64,000 nucleotides of DNA, from IMG/VR virus record IMGVR_UViG_2861079508_000001; one strand, 5' to 3'. The translations under genes were made by a program, and so were the position numbers. The DNA is from a virus. Taxonomy: Duplodnaviria > Heunggongvirae > Uroviricota > Caudoviricetes. Shown piece after piece: positions 1 through 41,155 of this stretch (the first letter of the stretch is position 1; each line of letters starts with the position of its first letter). Below the pieces are notes generated by a model that was given only the letters and a program-made list of their open reading frames with translations, had not been told where the DNA came from and made no database searches.

Positions 1-1095
1 ATGTCCACAAAAAATAAAAAAGGTAAAAATAACAAAGAAGTAGAAGATAACATCGACAACTTTGAAGAAGGTTCCCTTGAATTGTACACAGGGGAACTTG
101 TCCCTAATAGCAACAATACAGTCCAACCAATTGCGTTGATGCGACTGGGGTTGTTCGTCCCCACGCTTAAGGGAACAAAATACAGTAAACGTAACAAGCC
201 AAATGAGATCGATGCTTCAAAGGAGCTTGTCCAGCTCGAAGTAGCCCGTTCTGAAGGCTATTCCGATATCAAGATAACCGGTCCTCGTCTCGACATGGAT
301 CATGATTTCAAAACGTGGGTGGGCGTTGTGCGTTCGCTGGCAGAATACGGCGAACCTAACGGTCGTGTCGAGTTAAGCATCACGAAATTTGCGAAGTTTT
401 GTGGCTATCCATCGTCACAGATCCGCAAAACACTCCGCGACCGGCTTACAAACAGTCTTTTGAAGATCATGCGTACAACTCTGTCTTTCCAGAGAACGTA
501 TGAAGAAAAGAACGTCGACGGCTCTAACAAGATCTCGCTTCTGATGGTGCACCTCATCAATAGCGTGGACTACAACGAGCAGAAAGATACGGTGGTGTTC
601 TATGCAGAACCGAAGCTGGCCGAACTATATCGCTTTGACCATAAGGTTCTTTTGCAGTTAAAGGTTATCAATAAGCTACCACGCAAAGAAACAGCACAGG
701 CTCTGTACACCTTCATCGAAAGTCTTCCAACCAAGCCTGCGCCGGTATCGCTTGCTCGATTGCGTGCGCGACTCAATTTGAGTAGCAGGAATGTCAGCTC
801 GCAGAATCAGACTATACGTAACGGCTTAAAAGCTCTCCAAGATTTGGGCTATCTCGAATACAGCGAGATTAAGCGTGGGCGGTCGATCTATATCCAGATT
901 CACAGCCGCAATCCAAAACTCAAAGTCGCACCGCCAAAACCTGAAGACATCGAACCCAAAAAACCAGATGAGAAAGCCGGGGAAATTGATGCCAAACAGA
1001 ACATTATCAATAAGATAACCGAACTTTCGCAGAATTTGACGCCTGAAAATATCAAGATGATTGAGATCCTTTCCAATAGTCTCAAACTGCTTTGA
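1..1095 (+). CDS. repA: RepA-type iteron-binding plasmid replication initiator (P1/P7 RepA-like)
   Basis: 364-aa ORF starting at window base 1; segments SNNTVQPIALMRLGLFVP, DIKITGPRLDMD, ALYTFIESLP and HSRNPKLK match P1 RepA as I recall it; followed directly by iterons. Confidence 0.85.
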   Translation: MSTKNKKGKNNKEVEDNIDNFEEGSLELYTGELVPNSNNTVQPIALMRLGLFVPTLKGTKYSKRNKPNEIDASKELVQLEVARSEGYSDIKITGPRLDMDHDFKTWVGVVRSLAEYGEPNGRVELSITKFAKFCGYPSSQIRKTLRDRLTNSLLKIMRTTLSFQRTYEEKNVDGSNKISLLMVHLINSVDYNEQKDTVVFYAEPKLAELYRFDHKVLLQLKVINKLPRKETAQALYTFIESLPTKPAPVSLARLRARLNLSSRNVSSQNQTIRNGLKALQDLGYLEYSEIKRGRSIYIQIHSRNPKLKVAPPKPEDIEPKKPDEKAGEIDAKQNIINKITELSQNLTPENIKMIEILSNSLKLL

Positions 1096-1096
1096 T

Positions 1097-1212
1097 ATGC
1101 TGTCAGCGGTGAAATGTATGCTATCAGCGGCTATTTTTCTGAAAAGTATGCTGTGAACGGTTAAAGATATGCTACCAGCGGTATAGTGAGATGAACGTAT
1201 GCTGTGAGCGGT
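1097..1212. repeat. iteron array 1: five direct ~14-bp repeats ATGCT(G/A)(T/C)(C/G)A(G/A)CGGT, starts 1097/1118/1148/1169/1199
   Basis: read directly; same orientation; alternating 21/30-bp spacing; begins 2 bp after repA stop. Confidence 0.85.
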
Positions 1213-1374
1213 AAATCATCTATCACCACTCAATGCTCTGCCATACCTCCCCAGTGGTTACTAACCTCGAAGAGTGCATTCCATATAGGTTTGCGCTCAC
1301 TAACATTCTATTGCTATTGCGCTGATTGCTTGTAGTGAAAGGCATTTATTGCCTGCTACTCCCTGATAGAATGT

Positions 1375-1627
1375 ATGCTGTCAGCGGTGTTTTATTGAGG
1401 AATTTTTGTTTGGATATGCTATCAGCGGTAATTAATGGTATATGTCAGACCTTCGTATGCTGCCAGCGGTAATTTTGTTCTGGTTATACCCATACCGGGA
1501 CACATTATTCATGCAATGTCTTAAGTATGCTGTCAGCGGTAAAAAATCGAGTAAAGTATGCTGTGAGCGGTGAGATAGACTCTCGATATGCTATCAGCGG
1601 TAGTTGATTGTGTATGCTGTCAGCGGT
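1375..1627. repeat. iteron array 2: seven more copies of the same iteron (starts 1375,1416,1457,1527,1558,1588,1614)
   Basis: read directly; incA-like copy-control locus by analogy with P1. Confidence 0.8.
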
Positions 1628-1642
1628 GACGACTATGAAATA

Positions 1643-1666
1643 TGACTGCGGAACGTGCCGCAGTCA
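1643..1666. terminator. hairpin TGACTGCGG-aacgtg-CCGCAGTCA after the iterons; possible terminator
   Basis: perfect 9-bp inverted repeat; weak T-tract. Confidence 0.35.
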
Positions 1667-1674
1667 GTTTGCAT

Positions 1675-1887
1675 TTAGTGTATTTTCTTTAACAGACCCC
1701 AAAGTGTTCCGGCTTTTGTAGTCAGTTTTCCTGTTTCTGGATCGTACATACGCCATTCACGCCGCTGGTGGACGATATACCCATCTTCACGTTCCAGACG
1801 CTCAAGAATGCCAGGCTGCTTGAAACCCTTAGCACGCCAGTAGCCGCTTGTTTTCTCGATTTCCAGACCTGCCAGTGTTAATGCCAT
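1675..1887 (-). CDS. hypothetical protein (70 aa)
   Basis: ORF in track; stop overlaps start of upstream gene; no recognisable motif. Confidence 0.4.
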   Translation of the reverse strand: MALTLAGLEIEKTSGYWRAKGFKQPGILERLEREDGYIVHQRREWRMYDPETGKLTTKAGTLWGLLKKIH

Positions 1888-2222
1888 TACCCAACCTCCT
1901 TGCAGTCATCGAAAAGGTAGCTGTCGTTCTTCGCGTGAACGCCGTATACATCACCCGATTTGTTGTAAACGAACCTATCTTTACCTACGCCAGATAGTTC
2001 GCCGTTACGTTTAGTGAGAAACGGGGAAGACAGGACGCGATCATCGCGTACCACATAAAACTGTTCGCCACGGTCCACAACCATCGCGCCGTAATTAGCT
2101 TTAACGGCGTTGCGGATCAGGCCGTTTTTCGCTTCGACCACAAACATTTCGCACTCATAGACATGTGTGTCCGCAAAGACGGGGAGAGTGAGCAGCGCCA
2201 GTACCAGGGCTGTTTTCTTCAT
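1887..2222 (-). CDS. secreted hypothetical protein with N-terminal signal peptide
   Basis: N-terminus MKKTALVLALLTLPVFA is signal-peptide-like; 111 aa. Confidence 0.5.
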   Translation of the reverse strand: MKKTALVLALLTLPVFADTHVYECEMFVVEAKNGLIRNAVKANYGAMVVDRGEQFYVVRDDRVLSSPFLTKRNGELSGVGKDRFVYNKSGDVYGVHAKNDSYLFDDCKEVG

Positions 2223-2436
2223 GCCACGACTCCTTTGAAAACGCCTAATGCTGAGTCGAAGACCAGTACTACGGCCAGCGCATTGATCATCACATCATTA
2301 ACAGGCGCCAGCGCTTTACGGATTGCCCCTGTGAAGATGCAGTCGAGCACAAAGGCTATCGAGATAATAAGTAACGTGATATCTAATAAAATTTTCACGA
2401 TAGGTAAATGCTAACTTATATATTTTGCTGTAAATA

Positions 2437-2775
2437 TCACTCAAAAGTGCTGATACCCAAAATGCGCTCAAGATGGGCCGCGTCTTCATCGCTTACCAGC
2501 ATTGTGTCGTCTACGTACCAGCAGCTACCGTTGTGCCAACAAACACCGTCATCATCGATATAAATAGAATCCGCATCCATTCCTGTGTATTCAACTAGAT
2601 TGCGTTCAATTGCCGCTTGAATTTCTTCATCGTTCAGCCCGTCGCACTTGATCATGAACAACGGGTAAACGTCATAGTCGGTACTAGATGAAATGCGAAC
2701 CAAAGTCTTCATGTGTTTTCTCCTTGTTGGTAAGTACTTATCTATCTTAATGGGCGCTATAAGGCGCACAATCAT
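2437..2775 (-). CDS. hypothetical protein; real start probably ATG at 2712 (MKTLVRISS...)
   Basis: GGAG ribosome-binding site a few bases upstream of the ATG at 2712; track start is a longer alternative. Confidence 0.4.
   Translation of the reverse strand: MIVRLIAPIKIDKYLPTRRKHMKTLVRISSSTDYDVYPLFMIKCDGLNDEEIQAAIERNLVEYTGMDADSIYIDDDGVCWHNGSCWYVDDTMLVSDEDAAHLERILGISTFE
2729..2746. promoter_or_regulatory. motif B (inverted ATAAGT/ACTTAT hexamers) upstream of 2437..2712 gene
   Basis: GGTAAGTACTTATCTATC read directly. Confidence 0.4.
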
Positions 2776-2891
2776 TGTGTTCAGGCTGGTGGAAAGAACT
2801 TCTCCAGCGTGTGGTTGATAGCCTTATCAATGTGCATCAGGTGCCAGACGACCATATCTTTGCTTCCAATGCCGCGAGTGTAGATGAAGTG

Positions 2892-6610
<3,719 letters not shown>

Positions 6611-15743: not shown

Positions 15744-16199
15744 TCAACGGGGAGTAATAAAGCGTTCAGAGCCTAATCGCTCTAATTCAACGATGGCCAT
15801 CTTTGACGCCTGAACGATCATGTCTCGGCGATGCGAAAAGGCGGCGACAGCATGTTTGTATATGTCTGCGATGTGCCGTGCTTCATCCAACTTCTGCCTT
15901 TTAGACAGATACTGTGGGTTTGTTTTAACCTTAGCGTCCAGTACAGATTCGTTGAACTTAATGCCGTTCATACTCAAGTTCTTACGCTCTGTGTCGTATA
16001 GCTTTGCTTCAACAGCTTCAAGGTTAAGTTTTGCCTCTGCGACACTTCTTTCTGCATGAGCGAGTTTTGAGCCATACTCCATTAAAAGGCGGGGTTGTCT
16101 ACGCCAGACTTCCTCCAGATTGTCTCGGTCAAACTCGAGATCAGACATTATTTTCTCGTAAATATCGGCGATCATGCACATTTCCTTATCACTTATCAT
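15744..16199 (-). CDS. hypothetical protein (151 aa, predicted helical)
   Basis: ORF in replication module; no motif recognised. Confidence 0.4.
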   Translation of the reverse strand: MISDKEMCMIADIYEKIMSDLEFDRDNLEEVWRRQPRLLMEYGSKLAHAERSVAEAKLNLEAVEAKLYDTERKNLSMNGIKFNESVLDAKVKTNPQYLSKRQKLDEARHIADIYKHAVAAFSHRRDMIVQASKMAIVELERLGSERFITPR

Positions 16200-16300
16200 T
16201 TTGTATTGATTATATCATTGTAATGATGAGGCAATGAGCTTGAAGATAGGGGGGTGAGGGGATAAGGGAAAACATGGCCTTTATGGCCATGTTTATTGGA

Positions 16301-17470
16301 TCACGTCTTAATAGTTTCTGCTACGTCGGCTAATATCGCTTCTAGTCGTTCTCCCTCTTCAGGTCTGAAGTAAAGAATGTTGGGGTTAAACCCGTAAAAG
16401 ACAGTAACGTCAAGGTCTGGAAGATACTCCTTCCTGCCGACCAAATCGGATGGCTTGTTTTTGTTGTTAAACAATGAAGTTGCCCGGCTGCCACACGTCA
16501 GCACATAGGTCGGACGCACCAGATTGATCTCTTCACGCATAAAGTCGGTGAACTGGCCGATCTCGTCTTTGGTGTAGTCTTTTTCTTTGTCTTTAACCTT
16601 CTTGCAAACACCTGTGACATAGAGATCGCCCATGCGTAAATCTCCAGCCGTCAATAGCTTGGCCTTAAAGTCGTCGTATCCGTTCTCCATAAAGTAACCG
16701 GTTCGAGCATCATTGCCGTTCGCATTGTCCAGAATGATCATGATTTTCGGCTTAATACCAATGCTGGGGCGGATTAGTTCATCACCTAAGCCCATTTCAG
16801 CCGCCATCCGCGTCATGAGTACGTTAATTTCAGCCGAACGTTTGGGGTTCATCTCAAACGGACGTGAGGCTTTAACTGCGTCTATGACAAGGTTTCCCAT
16901 CAATTCAGCCTGGTCGCGTAGGCGCTCTGGATCAGTTGCTGGCAGACTGCCTGGCTCGATGGATGCAAACGCCCCTACTTTTTGCAGCGATTCGCGCACT
17001 CGACTATTACAGGCACGTTTCTCGACAGCTTCTTCGAATTGCGCCAGTGACTCGAATTTGCCGCCAACTTTTTCTCGCGCTCTCATGATGGCTTGGCAGC
17101 CATTCTCAGAACACCCCTTCACAGCAGAGAAGGGCGCATACAGCACCTGGCTGCCATCTTCAAGCGTGCGGATCTCGATTCGGTTAGATGACACGTTAAC
17201 GTCTGGTGGCAATACGCGAATGCCATAGGTCAGCGCATCTTTAACCAGCCCCTGGTGTTTATCTTCGCCAAGAATAGTGAGAGCAGCAGCGAAAAACTCT
17301 GCGGGATAATGAGTTTTCAACCACATAGATTGATAACTGATTAAGGAGTAAGCAACAGAGTGTGATTTGTTGAAGGCATACGCGCCGGATTTCTCAAACA
17401 TATTCCAGATTTCTTCGGCTCGTTCGTGCGTCAGGCCATTGCTCTCTTCGACAACACCGGTAATTTTCAT
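16301..17470 (-). CDS. dnaE: DNA polymerase III alpha (DnaE) C-terminal fragment
   Basis: starts at the conserved FNKSHSVAYSLISYQSMWLKTHYPAEFFAA region; ATG overlaps HNH stop (ATGA). Confidence 0.8.
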   Translation of the reverse strand: MKITGVVEESNGLTHERAEEIWNMFEKSGAYAFNKSHSVAYSLISYQSMWLKTHYPAEFFAAALTILGEDKHQGLVKDALTYGIRVLPPDVNVSSNRIEIRTLEDGSQVLYAPFSAVKGCSENGCQAIMRAREKVGGKFESLAQFEEAVEKRACNSRVRESLQKVGAFASIEPGSLPATDPERLRDQAELMGNLVIDAVKASRPFEMNPKRSAEINVLMTRMAAEMGLGDELIRPSIGIKPKIMIILDNANGNDARTGYFMENGYDDFKAKLLTAGDLRMGDLYVTGVCKKVKDKEKDYTKDEIGQFTDFMREEINLVRPTYVLTCGSRATSLFNNKNKPSDLVGRKEYLPDLDVTVFYGFNPNILYFRPEEGERLEAILADVAETIKT

Positions 17471-18201
17471 GCAGTCACCTCATCAATCTTCACGAACTCA
17501 TACCCATTGGAGGCCAGCCAGTTCCGTTGGCGCTCCCAGCTCCATATCTCTTCACGCATTTCACTATGCAGGCGAATGTGGGCGTCTTCTGGAAGTGCTA
17601 CAAGATTCCCAGGGGCGTTATCTATCGTATCGCGGTTAATATGGTGGACATGTTCATCGTCACGTAGCTCCCGACCGAGACGTTCTTTCGCTATCAATCG
17701 ATGAACGTATTCGTATTGCGAAACGCCATTGTTACCAACCAGCTGCATCATGTAGCCGTTGGTTTTTACGATGATGCCACCTTTGTAGTTGTTCGCTTCT
17801 TCTCCGATCTTTCCGCGTTTGGCAGCCGCCAGCTTTTCCTTCGTCTCCGCGCGGATTGTTCTGCCGGTTAGCTTTTTCGAAACGGTAGCCACTCGCTCAT
17901 CGATATCAGCACGCAGACCGGCATTCCACGAGGTTTTCCCATACATAGGGTTGCCAGTGCCAGTCCGGGCTTCGGAGAGACGCTTCATACGTTCGTCATT
18001 ATTTTTGTTTTTGCCACGATTCCAGGCTGGGGTAGCGGAGATCCGCGCGCTTCCGCGCCTGATCCCCCATTTGGCTAATAAGCGGTCAATATTTGCCTTG
18101 CTGCAACCAGCTTCGGCGGCAATGTCTTCTTTTCTCATCAGGTCAACCATGTAACGCTGACGTAACCATTCTTCTGTGATTTTGTACTTCGTACTCGGCA
18201 T
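17467..18201 (-). CDS. HNH homing endonuclease, free-standing, inserted within dnaE
   Basis: C-terminal HNH motif EHVHHINRDTIDNAPGNLVALPEDAHIRLH; N-terminal helix-turn-helix-like and NUMOD-like segments. Confidence 0.8.
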   Translation of the reverse strand: MPSTKYKITEEWLRQRYMVDLMRKEDIAAEAGCSKANIDRLLAKWGIRRGSARISATPAWNRGKNKNNDERMKRLSEARTGTGNPMYGKTSWNAGLRADIDERVATVSKKLTGRTIRAETKEKLAAAKRGKIGEEANNYKGGIIVKTNGYMMQLVGNNGVSQYEYVHRLIAKERLGRELRDDEHVHHINRDTIDNAPGNLVALPEDAHIRLHSEMREEIWSWERQRNWLASNGYEFVKIDEVTA

Positions 18202-18215
18202 TTCTAAGACTCACT

Positions 18216-18232
18216 AAACAAATTGTTTTCTT
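18216..18232. promoter_or_regulatory. motif A (AAACAAATTGTTTTCT) upstream of HNH / dnaE-C operon
   Basis: near-palindrome 15-30 bp upstream of start codon. Confidence 0.4.
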
Positions 18233-18249
18233 ATCTTATAAATTAATTC

Positions 18250-20613
18250 TCAAATATCGAAGCTCGTTATGTCGGCATTTATTGCCATTGCTTCGGCATA
18301 AGTGCGACGCTCACCATCAGCACAAAGTAGGCGTGCTGCTTTATGGATTTTTCTCGTAGAACCATCATCCAGTGACACTGTCACCCAGCCTTCCTCCGCT
18401 CGCTTAATGAAGTCGCCGCCAATGGATTTCATTTTCTCCATATCTTTTTTCCCGATCGCTTTCCTGACCGAGTCTGCTTCCGCCATTGAGAACCCCGCCA
18501 AGATTCGCGTAGCAGCCATGATCTGTTCCTGATAAATCAGAACTCCGTTTGTGTCGCGAGAGATGTCGTCCAGCATTGGGTGTAAGGAATGTGGGGCCAT
18601 GAAGCCTTTGGCCACGGACACATAATCGTCCAACATGCCGGATTGAATCGGGCCAGGTCGGAAGAGCGCAGTTGTAGCGACGACCGTTTTAAAGCTCATT
18701 GGCTCAATTCCACCACCTAAATCTTTAAGCAGCTTGCGCATTGGGCCTGATTCAAGCTGGAATACGCCCTGTGTATACCCTGCAGCAAAACCATCCAGCA
18801 CCTTGCGATCTTCAAGAGAAATGGCATCAAGATTGATATCTTCACCTGTGTTCTCTTTTATGTAGCGTTTTGCACTATCGAGCAAATCGAGAGTTGCCAG
18901 GCCAAGCACGTCCAGCTTAATTAGGCCCATAGCCTCGCAGTAACGCTTGTCAAATGCGATACAACGCGCGTCACCACGGCGTTCAACCGGTGTACGTTCT
19001 GTCAGAGGAACACCTGCTACGATCATCCCTGCCGCATGTCTACCAAAGCCACGCATAAGGCTTTGTAACTTGCAGGCTGCATTGAATGCATCAGGATATT
19101 TTGTTGCGTATTTGTCGAGACTTGCCAGTTGTTCGCGCAGCTCTTCCAATGGAAGGCTATCATCCTCGACGTTCTTCAGTTCTTTTGATACCGCCATATC
19201 TGCGGACTCCACACCATAAATACGAGCGGTGTCACGTAGTGCAGAGGCTGCGCCCAGGTAGGTGAAGTTCGGAATGCCTGCAACGTAATCTTCGCCGTAG
19301 CGTTCATTCAGATACTCGATCACCTCATGGCGACGTGCCTGGCTGAAGTCCAAGTCCGCATCCGGCAAGTCGAGACGCTCAGGGTTGATGAAACGCTCAA
19401 ACAGAAGACCGTGACGGATTGGGTCGACGTTGGTTATGCCTATGCACCACGCCACCAGAGAACCGGCAGAGGAACCACGACCAGGCCCGACAGGAATGCC
19501 AGTTTCACGGCTGTGATTCATCAGATCGCGTACCATCAGGAAGTAACCACAAAATCCCAGGCGAGTAAGCGTGTCCATTTCGTACTTAAGTCGCTCAACA
19601 TAAACCCTGTTCTCAGAAGCAGGTGGTGTGTATCCAAACTCTTTTGTGGTAAGACGTTTACGCAGCCCTGCAACAGCCAGTTTCATCAGCGTTGCAGGTT
19701 CGTCGTCTGCCATCTTGGGCAGTGCTGGTGGCAATTCATGCCAGCGCCATGTGCAGGCATCGATAATGGAGTCCTGCGTTGTTGAGGCCATTGCAGCTGT
19801 TACCGGCACATCCATGCGAACGGAGAAGGCTTTAAGCGCCTCAAGGAGATGGCGACGACCATTGATGGCGTTATCTCGCTGGTGGGGGATACGCAGACGA
19901 TGCGGCTGGTCGATTTTTATGTTGTTCGTAACCATGTGCGCAATGTCTTTAATGTCTGCATCGTCGATCGATTCGTAATAAGCGGGATAGAACGCTACTG
20001 GCTCTATTTTCAGTGCGCTGGCGACTTTCATCGCCCGGACGTTAATCTGGTCGTAGAATGGGGTAGGGTGCGGATAAACCACACTATAGAAGTTGTCTTT
20101 TCCACCCGCTGTAATCAGTGTGCTTATGATTTTTGCAAAATCGTTGCGTTGGAACACGCTACCGATGTCGGAAGTAAGCAGGATGATGTTGCCTTTGGCA
20201 TATGTAGAAACCAACTGTTCGAGCGAGAGACGCGGTACAAAGTAGAACTGTTCTCGTGTGTTGGCCGCCGTCATTAGTTCGCAGATGTCGCGATATCCTT
20301 TCTCATTTTTAATTAGAGCGGTAAACGAGTAGTTACGTCCTCGCTCTAATGATTCCATACATCTCATAGATTCTTTAGCAAGTTTAGCCCGGTGCTCGTA
20401 TGTGGGATCATCAACAATGTTTAGTTTCACACCACAAATAACCGCCATGTCGTCACCAGCGGCACGTTGTAGTGGAATAACGCTCGCAATATTCATGCTA
20501 TCTGCTGAAATTACAGCGGTGTAGCCAGCTTCTCTGGCAATCTTCACCGCGTTTTCTGCTTTTAGAGCCGACTCCCCAAGTGAGAAGTCAGTTCGAACCA
20601 TCAGTGCCTTCAT
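18250..20613 (-). CDS. dnaE: DNA polymerase III alpha (DnaE) N-terminal fragment (PHP domain plus polymerase core)
   Basis: 787 aa; GRGSSAGSLVAWCIGITNVDPIRHGLLFERFINPERLDLPDADLDF and FQLES...LFRPGP...YQEQIM match the DnaE core; last ~45 aa have no DnaE counterpart. Confidence 0.85.
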   Translation of the reverse strand: MKALMVRTDFSLGESALKAENAVKIAREAGYTAVISADSMNIASVIPLQRAAGDDMAVICGVKLNIVDDPTYEHRAKLAKESMRCMESLERGRNYSFTALIKNEKGYRDICELMTAANTREQFYFVPRLSLEQLVSTYAKGNIILLTSDIGSVFQRNDFAKIISTLITAGGKDNFYSVVYPHPTPFYDQINVRAMKVASALKIEPVAFYPAYYESIDDADIKDIAHMVTNNIKIDQPHRLRIPHQRDNAINGRRHLLEALKAFSVRMDVPVTAAMASTTQDSIIDACTWRWHELPPALPKMADDEPATLMKLAVAGLRKRLTTKEFGYTPPASENRVYVERLKYEMDTLTRLGFCGYFLMVRDLMNHSRETGIPVGPGRGSSAGSLVAWCIGITNVDPIRHGLLFERFINPERLDLPDADLDFSQARRHEVIEYLNERYGEDYVAGIPNFTYLGAASALRDTARIYGVESADMAVSKELKNVEDDSLPLEELREQLASLDKYATKYPDAFNAACKLQSLMRGFGRHAAGMIVAGVPLTERTPVERRGDARCIAFDKRYCEAMGLIKLDVLGLATLDLLDSAKRYIKENTGEDINLDAISLEDRKVLDGFAAGYTQGVFQLESGPMRKLLKDLGGGIEPMSFKTVVATTALFRPGPIQSGMLDDYVSVAKGFMAPHSLHPMLDDISRDTNGVLIYQEQIMAATRILAGFSMAEADSVRKAIGKKDMEKMKSIGGDFIKRAEEGWVTVSLDDGSTRKIHKAARLLCADGERRTYAEAMAINADITSFDI

Positions 20614-20791
20614 GTGTTTTTACCTTTCTGGTTTTTTTGATTTTGTCATTGGGGAAGCCTACGAACTTCCCATGCATCGAAATCGCAACTTCTTTTGCTG
20701 ATTGGTGACAATCGGGCTTGTCTGGACACACCAGACAAGCCTTACCTGTTTCAGAAGCAGCGATAAGAGAGCCGAAACATCCTTTACGCAC
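20588..20791 (-). CDS. small Cys-rich hypothetical protein (67 aa)
   Basis: CLVCPDKPDCH zinc-ribbon-like cluster; overlaps dnaE start by 26 bp. Confidence 0.3.
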   Translation of the reverse strand: MRKGCFGSLIAASETGKACLVCPDKPDCHQSAKEVAISMHGKFVGFPNDKIKKTRKVKTHEGTDGSN

Positions 20792-20793
20792 GA

Positions 20794-22029
20794 TTAACCA
20801 AATATTTTTTGAACAACTTCACGAGCCGCTTGTGCAGAAGCTGAAGGGAGTTTGTTAATGAAAGAACGCTCAATACCTGTCACAAAGTCGCCTCGCATCA
20901 TTCCAATCTTGGCTGACAACAAAAGTTCACGAGGGCCAATTGGCTGACTAATAAGGTGTTCTTCGTATCCATCGCGAACGATACCGGCAAACTTAACCAT
21001 CTTTTCAGCGTATTCATCCACGATGCCTGCATTTGTCAACATGTTGATCTCTGCGTCTTTGCTCATGTATTTCACATTCGAAACGATGCCAAAACGCGAA
21101 AAGTTCGCGGCGTTCTGGATGTTTGTACCCTGGTACAAGCCGGTTTCATCACCAGATCCGTTCGTGTTGCCAGTGCCAATGAAAGCAAACCGTTCATGCG
21201 GAGTAATGCGACGCCATTCTGGAGTTGCCTCTTTGATGACCAACGCTTCACCTTCCAGCACTGGCTGATACACGCCAAGAATTTGTGGAAACGCAAAGTC
21301 GTATTCATCCGCGAGGTAAACCCAGCCATGCTTCATTGCGAGCGCAAGCAAGCCAGGTTCGAAATACGTAGAGCCATCACGCGCCAGAATTTGCCCCGTA
21401 ACATGTGCCTCTTCCATTGATGCTGTATGTTGGGCACGGATCAACGGACGATTGAGCAAAGCACATAGCTGTGTAGGCAATGACGATTTGCCTGTTCCTG
21501 CATGACCCCACAAATAGCCAGGTATGCCAAGTTCAAGCATCATGAAAATATCTTTGATCAGTTCGAAGTCGCCATATACGTAGCCCTTCTTCACTTCTGG
21601 AACGAACTCTGGATACGGCGTATTGACGTTGACGCTAACCATGAGCGGCGTCCCACGTTTTGTTCCGAGTTCTTCCACCGTTACGTTTAGCAGTTCGTGA
21701 GCTGCGACCAGATCTGTCTTGTACTCAACTGTGCCTGTGTAGCCAGGGCTACTGGTCAAGACAGAAGATTTGGCCATTTCGCTTTTTTGCTCGGCACGTT
21801 TAGCTTGAATTGCATCAAGTGCCTTTTTCGATAGCGTTGGTTCATCTGGAAACTGCGTTGTGTACATTTTCAGTACGGTGTCAGGATCGGCATCTTTTAC
21901 TGACTCAGGAATGCCCTCGCAATTACCATTGGCTACATGGGACTTAAAATAGTGAAATGATTTGCCGCACCACTTGCAAACAAGGTAATCAGAAGGATTT
22001 TTTTCATTTTGCAGTGCAGTAGTCGTCAT
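20794..22029 (-). CDS. CobS-like MoxR-family AAA+ ATPase
   Basis: 411 aa; Walker A LWGHAGTGKSSL; paired with a downstream VWA protein as in pHCM2-type phage-plasmids. Confidence 0.7.
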   Translation of the reverse strand: MTTTALQNEKNPSDYLVCKWCGKSFHYFKSHVANGNCEGIPESVKDADPDTVLKMYTTQFPDEPTLSKKALDAIQAKRAEQKSEMAKSSVLTSSPGYTGTVEYKTDLVAAHELLNVTVEELGTKRGTPLMVSVNVNTPYPEFVPEVKKGYVYGDFELIKDIFMMLELGIPGYLWGHAGTGKSSLPTQLCALLNRPLIRAQHTASMEEAHVTGQILARDGSTYFEPGLLALAMKHGWVYLADEYDFAFPQILGVYQPVLEGEALVIKEATPEWRRITPHERFAFIGTGNTNGSGDETGLYQGTNIQNAANFSRFGIVSNVKYMSKDAEINMLTNAGIVDEYAEKMVKFAGIVRDGYEEHLISQPIGPRELLLSAKIGMMRGDFVTGIERSFINKLPSASAQAAREVVQKIFG

Positions 22030-24233: not shown

Positions 24234-24252
24234 GGCTAATCCTTTGTTATGA

Positions 24253-24268
24253 AAACAAATTATTTACT
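24253..24268. promoter_or_regulatory. motif A variant (AAACAAATTATTTACT) upstream of cobT-like gene
   Basis: 20-35 bp upstream of ATG 24233. Confidence 0.35.
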
Positions 24269-38209: not shown

Positions 38210-38225
38210 AAACAAATTGTTTTCT
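38210..38225. promoter_or_regulatory. motif A (AAACAAATTGTTTTCT) upstream of helicase gene
   Basis: 20-35 bp upstream of ATG 38190. Confidence 0.4.
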
Positions 38226-41139: not shown

Positions 41140-41155
41140 AAACAACTTGTTTTCT
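41140..41155. promoter_or_regulatory. motif A (AAACAACTTGTTTTCT) upstream of parA
   Basis: 36-51 bp upstream of ATG 41104. Confidence 0.4.

Follow-up and report, generated by a model that had tools for sequence, protein, structure and literature searches.

A dnaE gene in two pieces around an HNH endonuclease gene, with a putative split-intein vestige at the break, in an SSU5-like phage-plasmid of Escherichia coli

Two kinds of genes in pieces are already known: those that a homing endonuclease has split, and 'fractured' genes that contain split inteins. Fractured genes, as described by Dassa et al. (2009), associate a split intein and a homing endonuclease that is free-standing; they include three metagenomic DnaE loci and a gp41-7 locus without an endonuclease gene (PMC2677866). 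Loss of the intein chemistry was proposed in the same work as a route to permanent gene breaking (PMC2677866). In the nrdA-a/mobE/nrdA-b arrangement of phage Aeh1, two polypeptides reassemble to an active enzyme, as was shown for Aeh1 NrdA, and gene 43 of the Aeromonas phages 25 and 44RR occurs with and without an endonuclease gene, its halves being active and co-purifying (PMC2988022). The native cyanobacterial DnaE intein, finally, has the junction AEY/CFNK, in which the slash marks the splice site (PMC3759424). Here, we describe the dnaE gene in a stretch of 64,000 nucleotides (nt) of Caudoviricetes DNA (IMG/VR record IMGVR_UViG_2861079508_000001, hereafter the window), which is encoded on the minus strand as two open reading frames (ORFs), DnaE-N and DnaE-C, with a free-standing HNH endonuclease gene between them (Table 1). 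We put at roughly 80% the probability of separate synthesis of the two polypeptides and of present or past mobility, by homing, of the cassette around the break.

Compared with E. coli DNA polymerase III (Pol III) α, the DnaE family of these phage-plasmids has an insertion of ~56 amino acids (aa) between residues 730 and 731, hereafter the patch, and the break falls inside it, so that DnaE-N carries ~49 aa of the patch and DnaE-C 7 aa. The locus shares with fractured genes an N-piece with an end resembling the N-terminal half of a split intein (IntN), a free-standing endonuclease gene and a C-piece with a start resembling the C-terminal half (IntC). The host gene is in both cases that of a phage-type replication enzyme, the patch appears homologous to DnaE-type inteins, and the endonuclease loss at gp41-7 is paralleled by HNH-less alleles here. 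It differs in that only ~45 IntN and ~7 IntC residues are left and the nucleophile and Asn blocks are gone, so that ligation is not expected. With Aeh1 nrdA/mobE and T4 gene 39/60 with mobA, it has a free-standing HNH gene inside an essential gene of nucleotide metabolism or replication in common, but those host genes are different, no intein-derived sequence has been reported at their breaks, and the cassette described here carries coding extensions for both halves. Gene 43 of the Aeromonas phages is likewise a replicative DNA polymerase gene in two cistrons, the gap of which holds either a homing endonuclease gene or a short untranslated spacer. There, a family B polymerase and a GIY-YIG (seg) endonuclease of T4-like lytic phages are involved, whereas here it concerns a family C polymerase (DnaE), an HNH endonuclease, temperate phage-plasmids and an apparent intein vestige at the break. 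The closest sequence relatives of the patch, the Ssp and Npu DnaE split inteins, interrupt the same host protein. In cyanobacteria, however, two distant loci, with no endonuclease gene in between, encode the halves, and trans-splicing ligates these, whereas in the window the halves are adjacent, an HNH gene lies between them and the catalytic intein blocks are absent. The FNKSHS motif, at which the cyanobacterial split is located, lies 25 residues downstream of the break in the window; the initial annotation of this DNA, which placed the break just before FNKSHS, had pointed to a related and not to an identical site. Full-text literature searches yielded no paper on a split dnaE of SSU5-like elements.

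The region shares 95-96% identity with that of the Escherichia phages CMS-2020a and PhiR41_1, 91% with that of Cyrano and 85% with that of Salmonella phage SSU5, and on this basis we assign the window to an SSU5-like phage-plasmid of E. coli. The dnaE genes of PhiR41_1, SSU5 and Cyrano are contiguous and encode 1168-1172 aa, against 1176 aa for DnaE-N and DnaE-C together. In the protein alignment, both halves are collinear with the contiguous proteins and no part is missing; the extra DNA is a clean insertion of 794 bp, now mapped by the alignment with contiguous homologues that had been proposed as a check. A sequencing error or frameshift was also considered and is ruled out by the intact ORF in the 794-bp insert and by the many independent assemblies. 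The PHP, palm/NTPase, fingers and helix-hairpin-helix (HhH) domains that identify a DnaE protein are all present. Following the head MKITGVV, DnaE-C aligns to E. coli residues 731 onward, and FNKSHS begins at its residue 33. The coordinates of the three ORFs in the initial annotation proved exact, and their domains could be assigned with Pfam and NCBIfam. Its description of the DnaE-N tail as lacking a DnaE counterpart holds for canonical DnaE, but not for the contiguous DnaE of the closest relatives, in which the protein alignment reveals an equivalent, very divergent patch; the probable nature of this tail as a vestige of a split intein had been missed.

Both halves appear to be maintained as functional genes. 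Split alleles of four genera (Escherichia, Enterobacter, Cronobacter and Buttiauxella) were compared by the Nei-Gojobori method. At dS values of 0.7-1.7, the ratio of non-synonymous to synonymous substitution rates (dN/dS) is 0.03-0.05 in DnaE-N and 0.015-0.023 in DnaE-C, and the ORF lengths of both halves are constant across these lineages. The 48-bp gap behind DnaE-N and the overlap between the HNH stop codon (TGA, 17467-17469) and the DnaE-C start codon (ATG, 17468-17470) in the tetranucleotide ATGA are read directly in the sequence. The string GAGG(T/A)GACTGCATGA is common to the window and an Aeromonas allele with 41% protein identity, and purine-rich sites precede the ATG of the C half in most split alleles. 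The break point is constant as well: FNKSH is found at residue 32-33 in nearly all of 81 stand-alone C halves (33-97% identity). Finger elements of the E. coli type are present on both sides of the break, and based on the established Pol III α structures the halves would therefore have to associate to give an active polymerase. The best reading is that DnaE-N (787 aa) and DnaE-C (389 aa) would be translated as separate polypeptides, the latter from its own GAGGTG site and coupled to the HNH stop codon, and would reassemble non-covalently as one C-family polymerase. Of the two alternatives raised in the initial annotation, the purifying selection and the own Shine-Dalgarno (SD) sequence and ATG of DnaE-C favour the split polymerase made as two polypeptides.

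Of the 106 complete E. coli genomes with this dnaE region, 22 contain the 1.1-kb junction region at 97-99.9% identity, always plasmid-borne and with the insert at the identical position in all 22 carriers; 24 of 118 plasmids carry the insert. Enterobacter plasmids (94% identity) and Cronobacter plasmids (90%) contain the junction region too, and records other than split carriers match the outer flanks only. An assembly artefact is ruled out by the recurrence of the same arrangement in 22 complete genomes of E. coli as well as in plasmids of Enterobacter and Cronobacter. Every placeable full-length relative of the HNH protein lies between DnaE-N and DnaE-C. Six IMG/VR contigs carry a relative at 89-100% identity and two (L015 and L016) at 36%, while on an Aeromonas jandaei plasmid all three proteins are 41-42% identical to those of the window. 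C halves at 41% and 35% identity (L091 and L093) likewise come after an HNH_3 gene.

Other contents of the same gap were observed. The Buttiauxella plasmid p1WJP83 encodes a DnaE-N of 787 aa and a DnaE-C of 389 aa without an HNH gene, and its gap of 69 nt consists of the conserved spacer, an ATG-TCA-TGA mini-ORF and AAGGTGG, followed by the ATG. HNH-less gaps of 70 and 72 nt occur in contigs L090 and L097, respectively. A Klebsiella pneumoniae assembly (L098), the N-half protein cluster of which comprises 1105 member sequences, has an unrelated NUMOD4-HNH_3 gene (5361-6062) in this position, and contig L095 has a 184-aa ORF (3681-4235) without Pfam match. Different genes thus occupy one landing site in dnaE, and the earlier statement that dnaE was split by the HNH gene is too simple as a cause, as the same gap can hold an unrelated HNH gene, the 184-aa ORF or nothing. 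No further copy of the window-type or the Klebsiella-type HNH gene is present within the window. Databases also contain aberrant derivatives (P0022, P0014, P0343, P0361 and P0385). P0022 consists of the N-terminal part of the Klebsiella-type HNH protein fused to the last ~230 aa of DnaE-C, and several proteins join the N-terminal domains of DnaE to a RecA domain or are devoid of the protein middle, which suggests deletions around the locus in some plasmids.

The relationship of the HNH ORF to homing endonucleases, on which the initial annotation depended, is borne out by matches to Pfam HNH_3 (1e-7) and NUMOD3 (2.7e-6) and by the invariant catalytic residues: H184/H186/H187, N199, H208 and H212 are conserved in homologues down to 42% identity. 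PHROG 21964 matches the full length. The gene is a cistron of its own with separate start and stop codons, and its dN/dS is 0.17-0.20. A word-indexed protein search with the HNH protein returned relatives at ≥ 88% identity only, tblastn against the phage collection gave only distant, partial matches below 50% identity, and a profile scan of the genome contigs with the HNH alignment gave nothing relevant.

The identity profile around the break is mosaic. In a sliding comparison with p4_0.2, an HNH-less plasmid of E. coli, the identity of dnaE is ~99% except in the tract from ~-420 to +120 nt of the break, where it is 30-80%. The tract is in turn 93-100% identical to the Enterobacter, Cronobacter and Buttiauxella alleles, the backbones of which reach 75-88%; the HNH gene and its near flanks are 89-100% identical across the genera. 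The dS of the HNH gene amounts to 0.16-0.38, compared with 0.66-1.7 in the surrounding dnaE. From DnaE-N the tract takes in ~430-530 nt at the 3' end and from DnaE-C 96 nt at the 5' end, and the spacer and the HNH gene lie between these. Such a mosaic profile is the signature expected of homing with co-conversion. A cassette of ~1.4 kb, consisting of the gap with the HNH gene and ~0.5 kb of dnaE on its flanks, appears to spread between related phage-plasmids, presumably by specific cleavage of HNH-less alleles by the HNH protein and subsequent recombinational repair.

Table 1. Features of the dnaE locus in the window (positions are those of the whole window)
Feature	Position	Strand	Description
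DnaE-N ORF	18250..20613	(-)	787 aa; PHP, palm/NTPase and most of the fingers; Pfam PF02811, PF07733, PF17657; NCBIfam DnaE models over positions 4-741
C-terminal tail of DnaE-N (W743-I787)	18253..18387	(-)	45 aa; read as IntN vestige (C-terminal third, DnaE type)
Spacer, DnaE-N stop to HNH start	18202..18249	(-)	48 nt; holds palindrome AAAACAATTTGTTT (18216-18229)
HNH endonuclease gene	17467..18201	(-)	244 aa; N-terminal helix-turn-helix-like region, NUMOD3, C-terminal HNH_3
HNH catalytic motif	~17566-17655	(-)	
SD sequence GAGGTG for DnaE-C	17476..17481	(-)	within the 3' end of the HNH ORF, 5 nt before the ATG
DnaE-C ORF	16301..17470	(-)	389 aa; head MKITGVV, remaining fingers from FNKSHS, HhH domain; Pfam HHH_6 5e-17; NCBIfam DnaE models 725-886
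Head MKITGVV of DnaE-C	17450-17470	(-)	7 aa; read as vestige of the first IntC strand
Uracil-DNA glycosylase-like C-terminal domain of DnaE-C	16304..16828	(-)	~175 aa; TIGR00758 5e-8, below its cutoff
Probable terminator after DnaE-C stop	16270..16294 (also taken as 16262-16294)	(-)	GC-rich hairpin, then U-run; 10-bp stem, region z = -3.3 (RNA fold)
Putative mobile cassette/co-conversion tract	17375..18781		~1.4 kb; basis: mosaic identity profile

The patch in which the break lies was traced with a HMMER search of 1.84 billion representative proteins using the C half as query, which retrieved C halves standing alone as well as contiguous proteins. Across the 221 sequences of the contiguous type that were fetched, the spacing between GKK and FNKSH is strictly bimodal. 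It measures 43-44 aa in 122 of them, the patch-less group of bacterial DnaE and deep phage-family members, and 91-99 aa in the other 99, namely the enterobacterial SSU5 clade and one deep protein, P0150. All N halves end 65-69 aa after GKK. The patch is present with every split allele, and the deep contiguous lineages are without it, with P0150 as sole exception. In an AlphaFold2 (AF2) model of a fragment of a contiguous allele (P0009, 544 aa, 69-sequence alignment, mean predicted local distance difference test score 90.7), the patch is a small module that combines strands with a single helix, and its last strand spans the break position. The rest of the model matches the fingers and HhH region of Pol III α and, C-terminally, family-4 uracil-DNA glycosylases.

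Profile comparisons relate this module to inteins. When all PDB sequences were searched with a profile built on 14 patch sequences, the top 14 matches were DnaE split inteins, the top 13 at E-values of 3.5e-4 to 0.014 and the fourteenth at 0.12; with a profile of split alleles only, the top 12 were all DnaE inteins (E-values of 1.1e-6 to 3e-5). Using hhalign against the Npu DnaE intein sequence, a probability of 89.8% was obtained, with patch positions 4-50 aligned to intein positions 57-107. This alignment crosses the natural IntN/IntC junction, and the initiator Met of DnaE-C pairs with Met1 of IntC. We consider it highly probable that the patch is intein-derived. On the best reading, the tail of DnaE-N corresponds to the last ~45 IntN residues, which extend from the block-B region as far as the split site, and the first IntC strand is represented by the head MKITGVV. 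Absent are intein residues 1 to ~53, including the Cys1 nucleophile and block A, and everything past the first IntC strand (blocks F and G, the terminal Asn and the +1 Cys/Ser/Thr). The patch starts with G-W-(V/I) directly after the DnaE sequence, and no Cys or Ser is kept at the start of the tail. Since the catalytic blocks are absent, splicing is not expected, and the element appears to be an intein remnant unable to splice.

An intein origin of the patch still allows for a working fractured gene as described by Dassa et al. (2009), in which an active split intein ligates the halves by protein trans-splicing. The order of N-piece, free-standing endonuclease gene and C-piece fits such a gene, the tail and head share homology with DnaE split inteins, the break coincides with the intein split site, and the family includes dnaE genes that contain true split inteins. 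With only ~52 of ~138 intein residues left, with Cys1/block A, blocks F/G, the terminal Asn and the +1 residue all absent, with contiguous relatives that hold the patch in frame without splice-junction residues and with Pfam intein models remaining silent, ligation is nevertheless hardly credible. The opposite view, in which the ~56-aa patch is an ordinary, lineage-specific insertion domain unrelated to inteins and the HNH gene inserted directly, like mobE in Aeh1 nrdA, we consider improbable. The profile search is specific, as DnaE inteins fill the top ranks and the best E-value improved from 3.5e-4 to 1.1e-6 with the better profile; the hhalign alignment runs through the split junction from Met to Met; and the spacing in contiguous DnaE is strictly bimodal, with the patch going along with every split allele and, except for P0150, with none of the deep contiguous lineages. 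The HNH insertion might also have killed dnaE, leaving decaying pseudogene fragments in an element that relies on host Pol III. Many SSU5-like plasmids are indeed kept in hosts with a DnaE of their own, and truncated or fused dnaE derivatives (P0014, P0022 and P0343) are found in databases. A dN/dS of 0.015-0.05 at a dS of ~1 over four genera, intact ORFs of constant length, the same split in lineages of only 35-42% identity and the conserved translation signals of the C half make this very improbable.

The other alternative of the initial annotation, a group I intron carrying the HNH ORF, is not supported. Here, the 794-nt insert would be a group I or II intron, and RNA splicing would restore a contiguous dnaE mRNA. 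The insert sits in a conserved, essential gene, and HNH ORFs do occur in phage group I introns, such as that in the DNA polymerase gene of SPO1. A covariance-model search (Rfam 15 cmscan, positions 16000-21000, both strands) nevertheless detected no group I or II intron at E ≤ 10 and only chance matches to miRNA and snoRNA models. Just 48 nt of the insert are non-coding, all located 5' of the HNH ORF with 0 nt at the 3' side; DnaE-N has its own stop codon, and DnaE-C its own SD sequence and ATG, kept down to 41% identity. The alleles with a gap of 69-72 nt keep both halves intact and under purifying selection, and because these HNH-less gaps measure only 69-72 nt in all, they cannot encode a ribozyme. 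We reject an intron, which is the least probable of the explanations weighed here. Ribosomal bypass of the T4 gene 60 type, prompted by the ATT-TGA at the end of the N half and the ATT at codon 3 of the C half, was set aside given the gap of 779 nt and the conserved SD sequence and ATG of the C half. More weight should be given to the explanation that the gene was already split and that the window-type HNH gene is a later squatter in the inter-cistronic gap and not the cause of the break, although we still find this unlikely. HNH-less split alleles are common (Buttiauxella, L090 and L097), the same gap holds an unrelated NUMOD4-HNH gene in L098 or the 184-aa ORF in L095, and the same ambiguity exists for gene 43 of the Aeromonas phages 25 and 44RR (PMC2988022). 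In the window, however, the HNH gene and the split came as one cassette into a backbone with contiguous nearest relatives, and in the Buttiauxella gap the start codon of the HNH gene and the spacer upstream of it are still present, which looks like an internal deletion of the HNH gene. A squatter bears on the ancient origin of the split only and is compatible with the separately translated halves and mobile cassette that we favour.

Several points weigh against our reading. The two polypeptides, their association and the activity of the HNH protein are deduced from sequence, and a phage-plasmid may or may not need a DnaE of its own. The patch of the window itself gave only insignificant, Tudor-like matches with phmmer against the PDB (E-values of 0.3-0.6), a Pfam scan of nine patch sequences at E ≤ 10 gave no intein or Hint match, and the intein matches in the PDB stem from only about three independent intein sequences. 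The order of the split and the contiguous-with-patch states, moreover, follows from a rough neighbour-joining (NJ) tree.

With regard to this order, the split patch of the K. pneumoniae-type allele (L098) is similar to the contiguous patch of Cyrano, and that of the L097/Enterobacter kobei type to the contiguous patch of SSU5 and PhiR41_1. This pairing of patch types across states implies that split and contiguous forms were interconverted at least twice. In the NJ tree of the C region, the enterobacterial contiguous-with-patch proteins are nested among split alleles, and the split alleles are scattered among patch-less lineages, which provides weak evidence for re-fusion after endonuclease loss together with horizontal spread of the cassette. 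The endonuclease life cycle in SSU5-like elements would consist of invasion, followed by swap or loss of the endonuclease (gaps of 69-72 nt), re-fusion in which the 56-aa intein scar is kept (SSU5, PhiR41_1 and Cyrano) and re-invasion (the window). The break would sit at the natural split and endonuclease-insertion point of the intein and, with the splicing blocks gone, no peptide bond would be formed between the halves. The retained strands would form one small β-sheet module across the break, probably aiding the docking of the halves. We propose tentatively, at odds somewhat short of even, a docking role for the stub and an origin of the contiguous-with-patch alleles by re-fusion. It is to a similar degree conceivable that the mobile unit is the whole cassette, composed of the IntN remnant, the stop codon, the palindrome spacer, the endonuclease gene, the SD sequence and ATG, and the IntC remnant, as the leftover of a fractured gene. 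Homing of this cassette into an intact dnaE would then create two cistrons in a single step and would also bring along the stop, the start and a non-covalent docking module, i.e. a split-intein interface without splicing.

Other members of the family carry inteins in the same gene. In L096, a related contig of ~107 kb, dnaE (134-6150) is broken into four or more pieces and has two genuine split inteins, the junctions of which are GRGS/CFLAGS... with ...GIPVHN/SSGS and FQFE/CLSGET... with ...EIVVHN/SGG. The gaps hold an ORF of 339 aa of unknown function and an HNH_3 gene, making this a doubly fractured gene. The distant protein P0158 (1528 aa) has a full-size intein with a large central domain in the finger motif LRK/.../MGKK, which is a third intein site. 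The dnaE gene of this phage family is a hot spot for intein and endonuclease elements.

At its C-terminus, the protein departs from bacterial DnaE. The OB fold/tau-binding region of the latter is not encountered and a fold like that of family-4 uracil-DNA glycosylases is found instead. For this domain in the AF2 model, Foldseek gave matches to 4zbx, 1l9g and 1ui0 with template modelling (TM) scores (target) of 0.76-0.79. The canonical GE(A/G)PG motif is seemingly replaced by LDNANG. The RefSeq name of the C half is 'uracil-DNA glycosylase'.

The 48-nt spacer upstream of the HNH gene is also kept in the Enterobacter, Cronobacter and Buttiauxella alleles. Its palindrome, AAAACAA-N-TTGTTT, occurs at four sites in the window, all on the minus strand (18216-18229, 24252-24265, 38210-38223 and 41140-41153), each ~16-40 nt upstream of a gene start, namely those of the HNH gene and of genes encoding a 702-aa CobT-like protein and proteins of 446 and 222 aa. 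Its extended form is roughly A[TC][AT]AG[AT]AAA[CT]AANTTGTTT. Over both strands of the window, 7 matches were counted versus 0.16 expected by chance, and two copies lie in the HNH-less gap of L090. The palindrome AAAACAANTTGTTT is probably a phage promoter or operator motif.

A consensus scan for sigma-70 promoters and terminators found no site on the coding (minus) strand within the locus. Given the hairpin and U-run at its end and the lack of an internal terminator-like site on the coding strand, the locus is consistent with one transcription unit of dnaE-N, the HNH gene and dnaE-C. The hairpin after the DnaE-C stop itself escaped the simple terminator consensus scan. The spurious Rfam miRNA matches at 16163-16270 adjoin this hairpin and cover a weaker, AU-rich stem downstream. 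At the other end, an ORF of 67 aa (20588-20791, minus strand) overlaps the dnaE start by 26 nt; its position matches that of SSU5_051, a hypothetical protein.

The element is an endonuclease-associated gene in pieces and, as such, belongs to a known class of which it is an undescribed variant. This variant would be a fractured gene, the split intein of which has decayed to a non-catalytic stub that travels with an endonuclease cassette. If true, a split intein without chemistry in a gene that is still split and under selection would link both known kinds of genes in pieces. For annotation, naming the C half 'uracil-DNA glycosylase' or 'helix-hairpin-helix protein' hides its identity as half of a DnaE. 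The locus would offer a tractable E. coli system with natural alleles that are contiguous with or without the scar and split with or without the endonuclease gene. Such an allele series could show how a large replicative polymerase tolerates breakage, whether intein remnants act as docking modules and how an endonuclease cassette cycles in a population of clinically common phage-plasmids.

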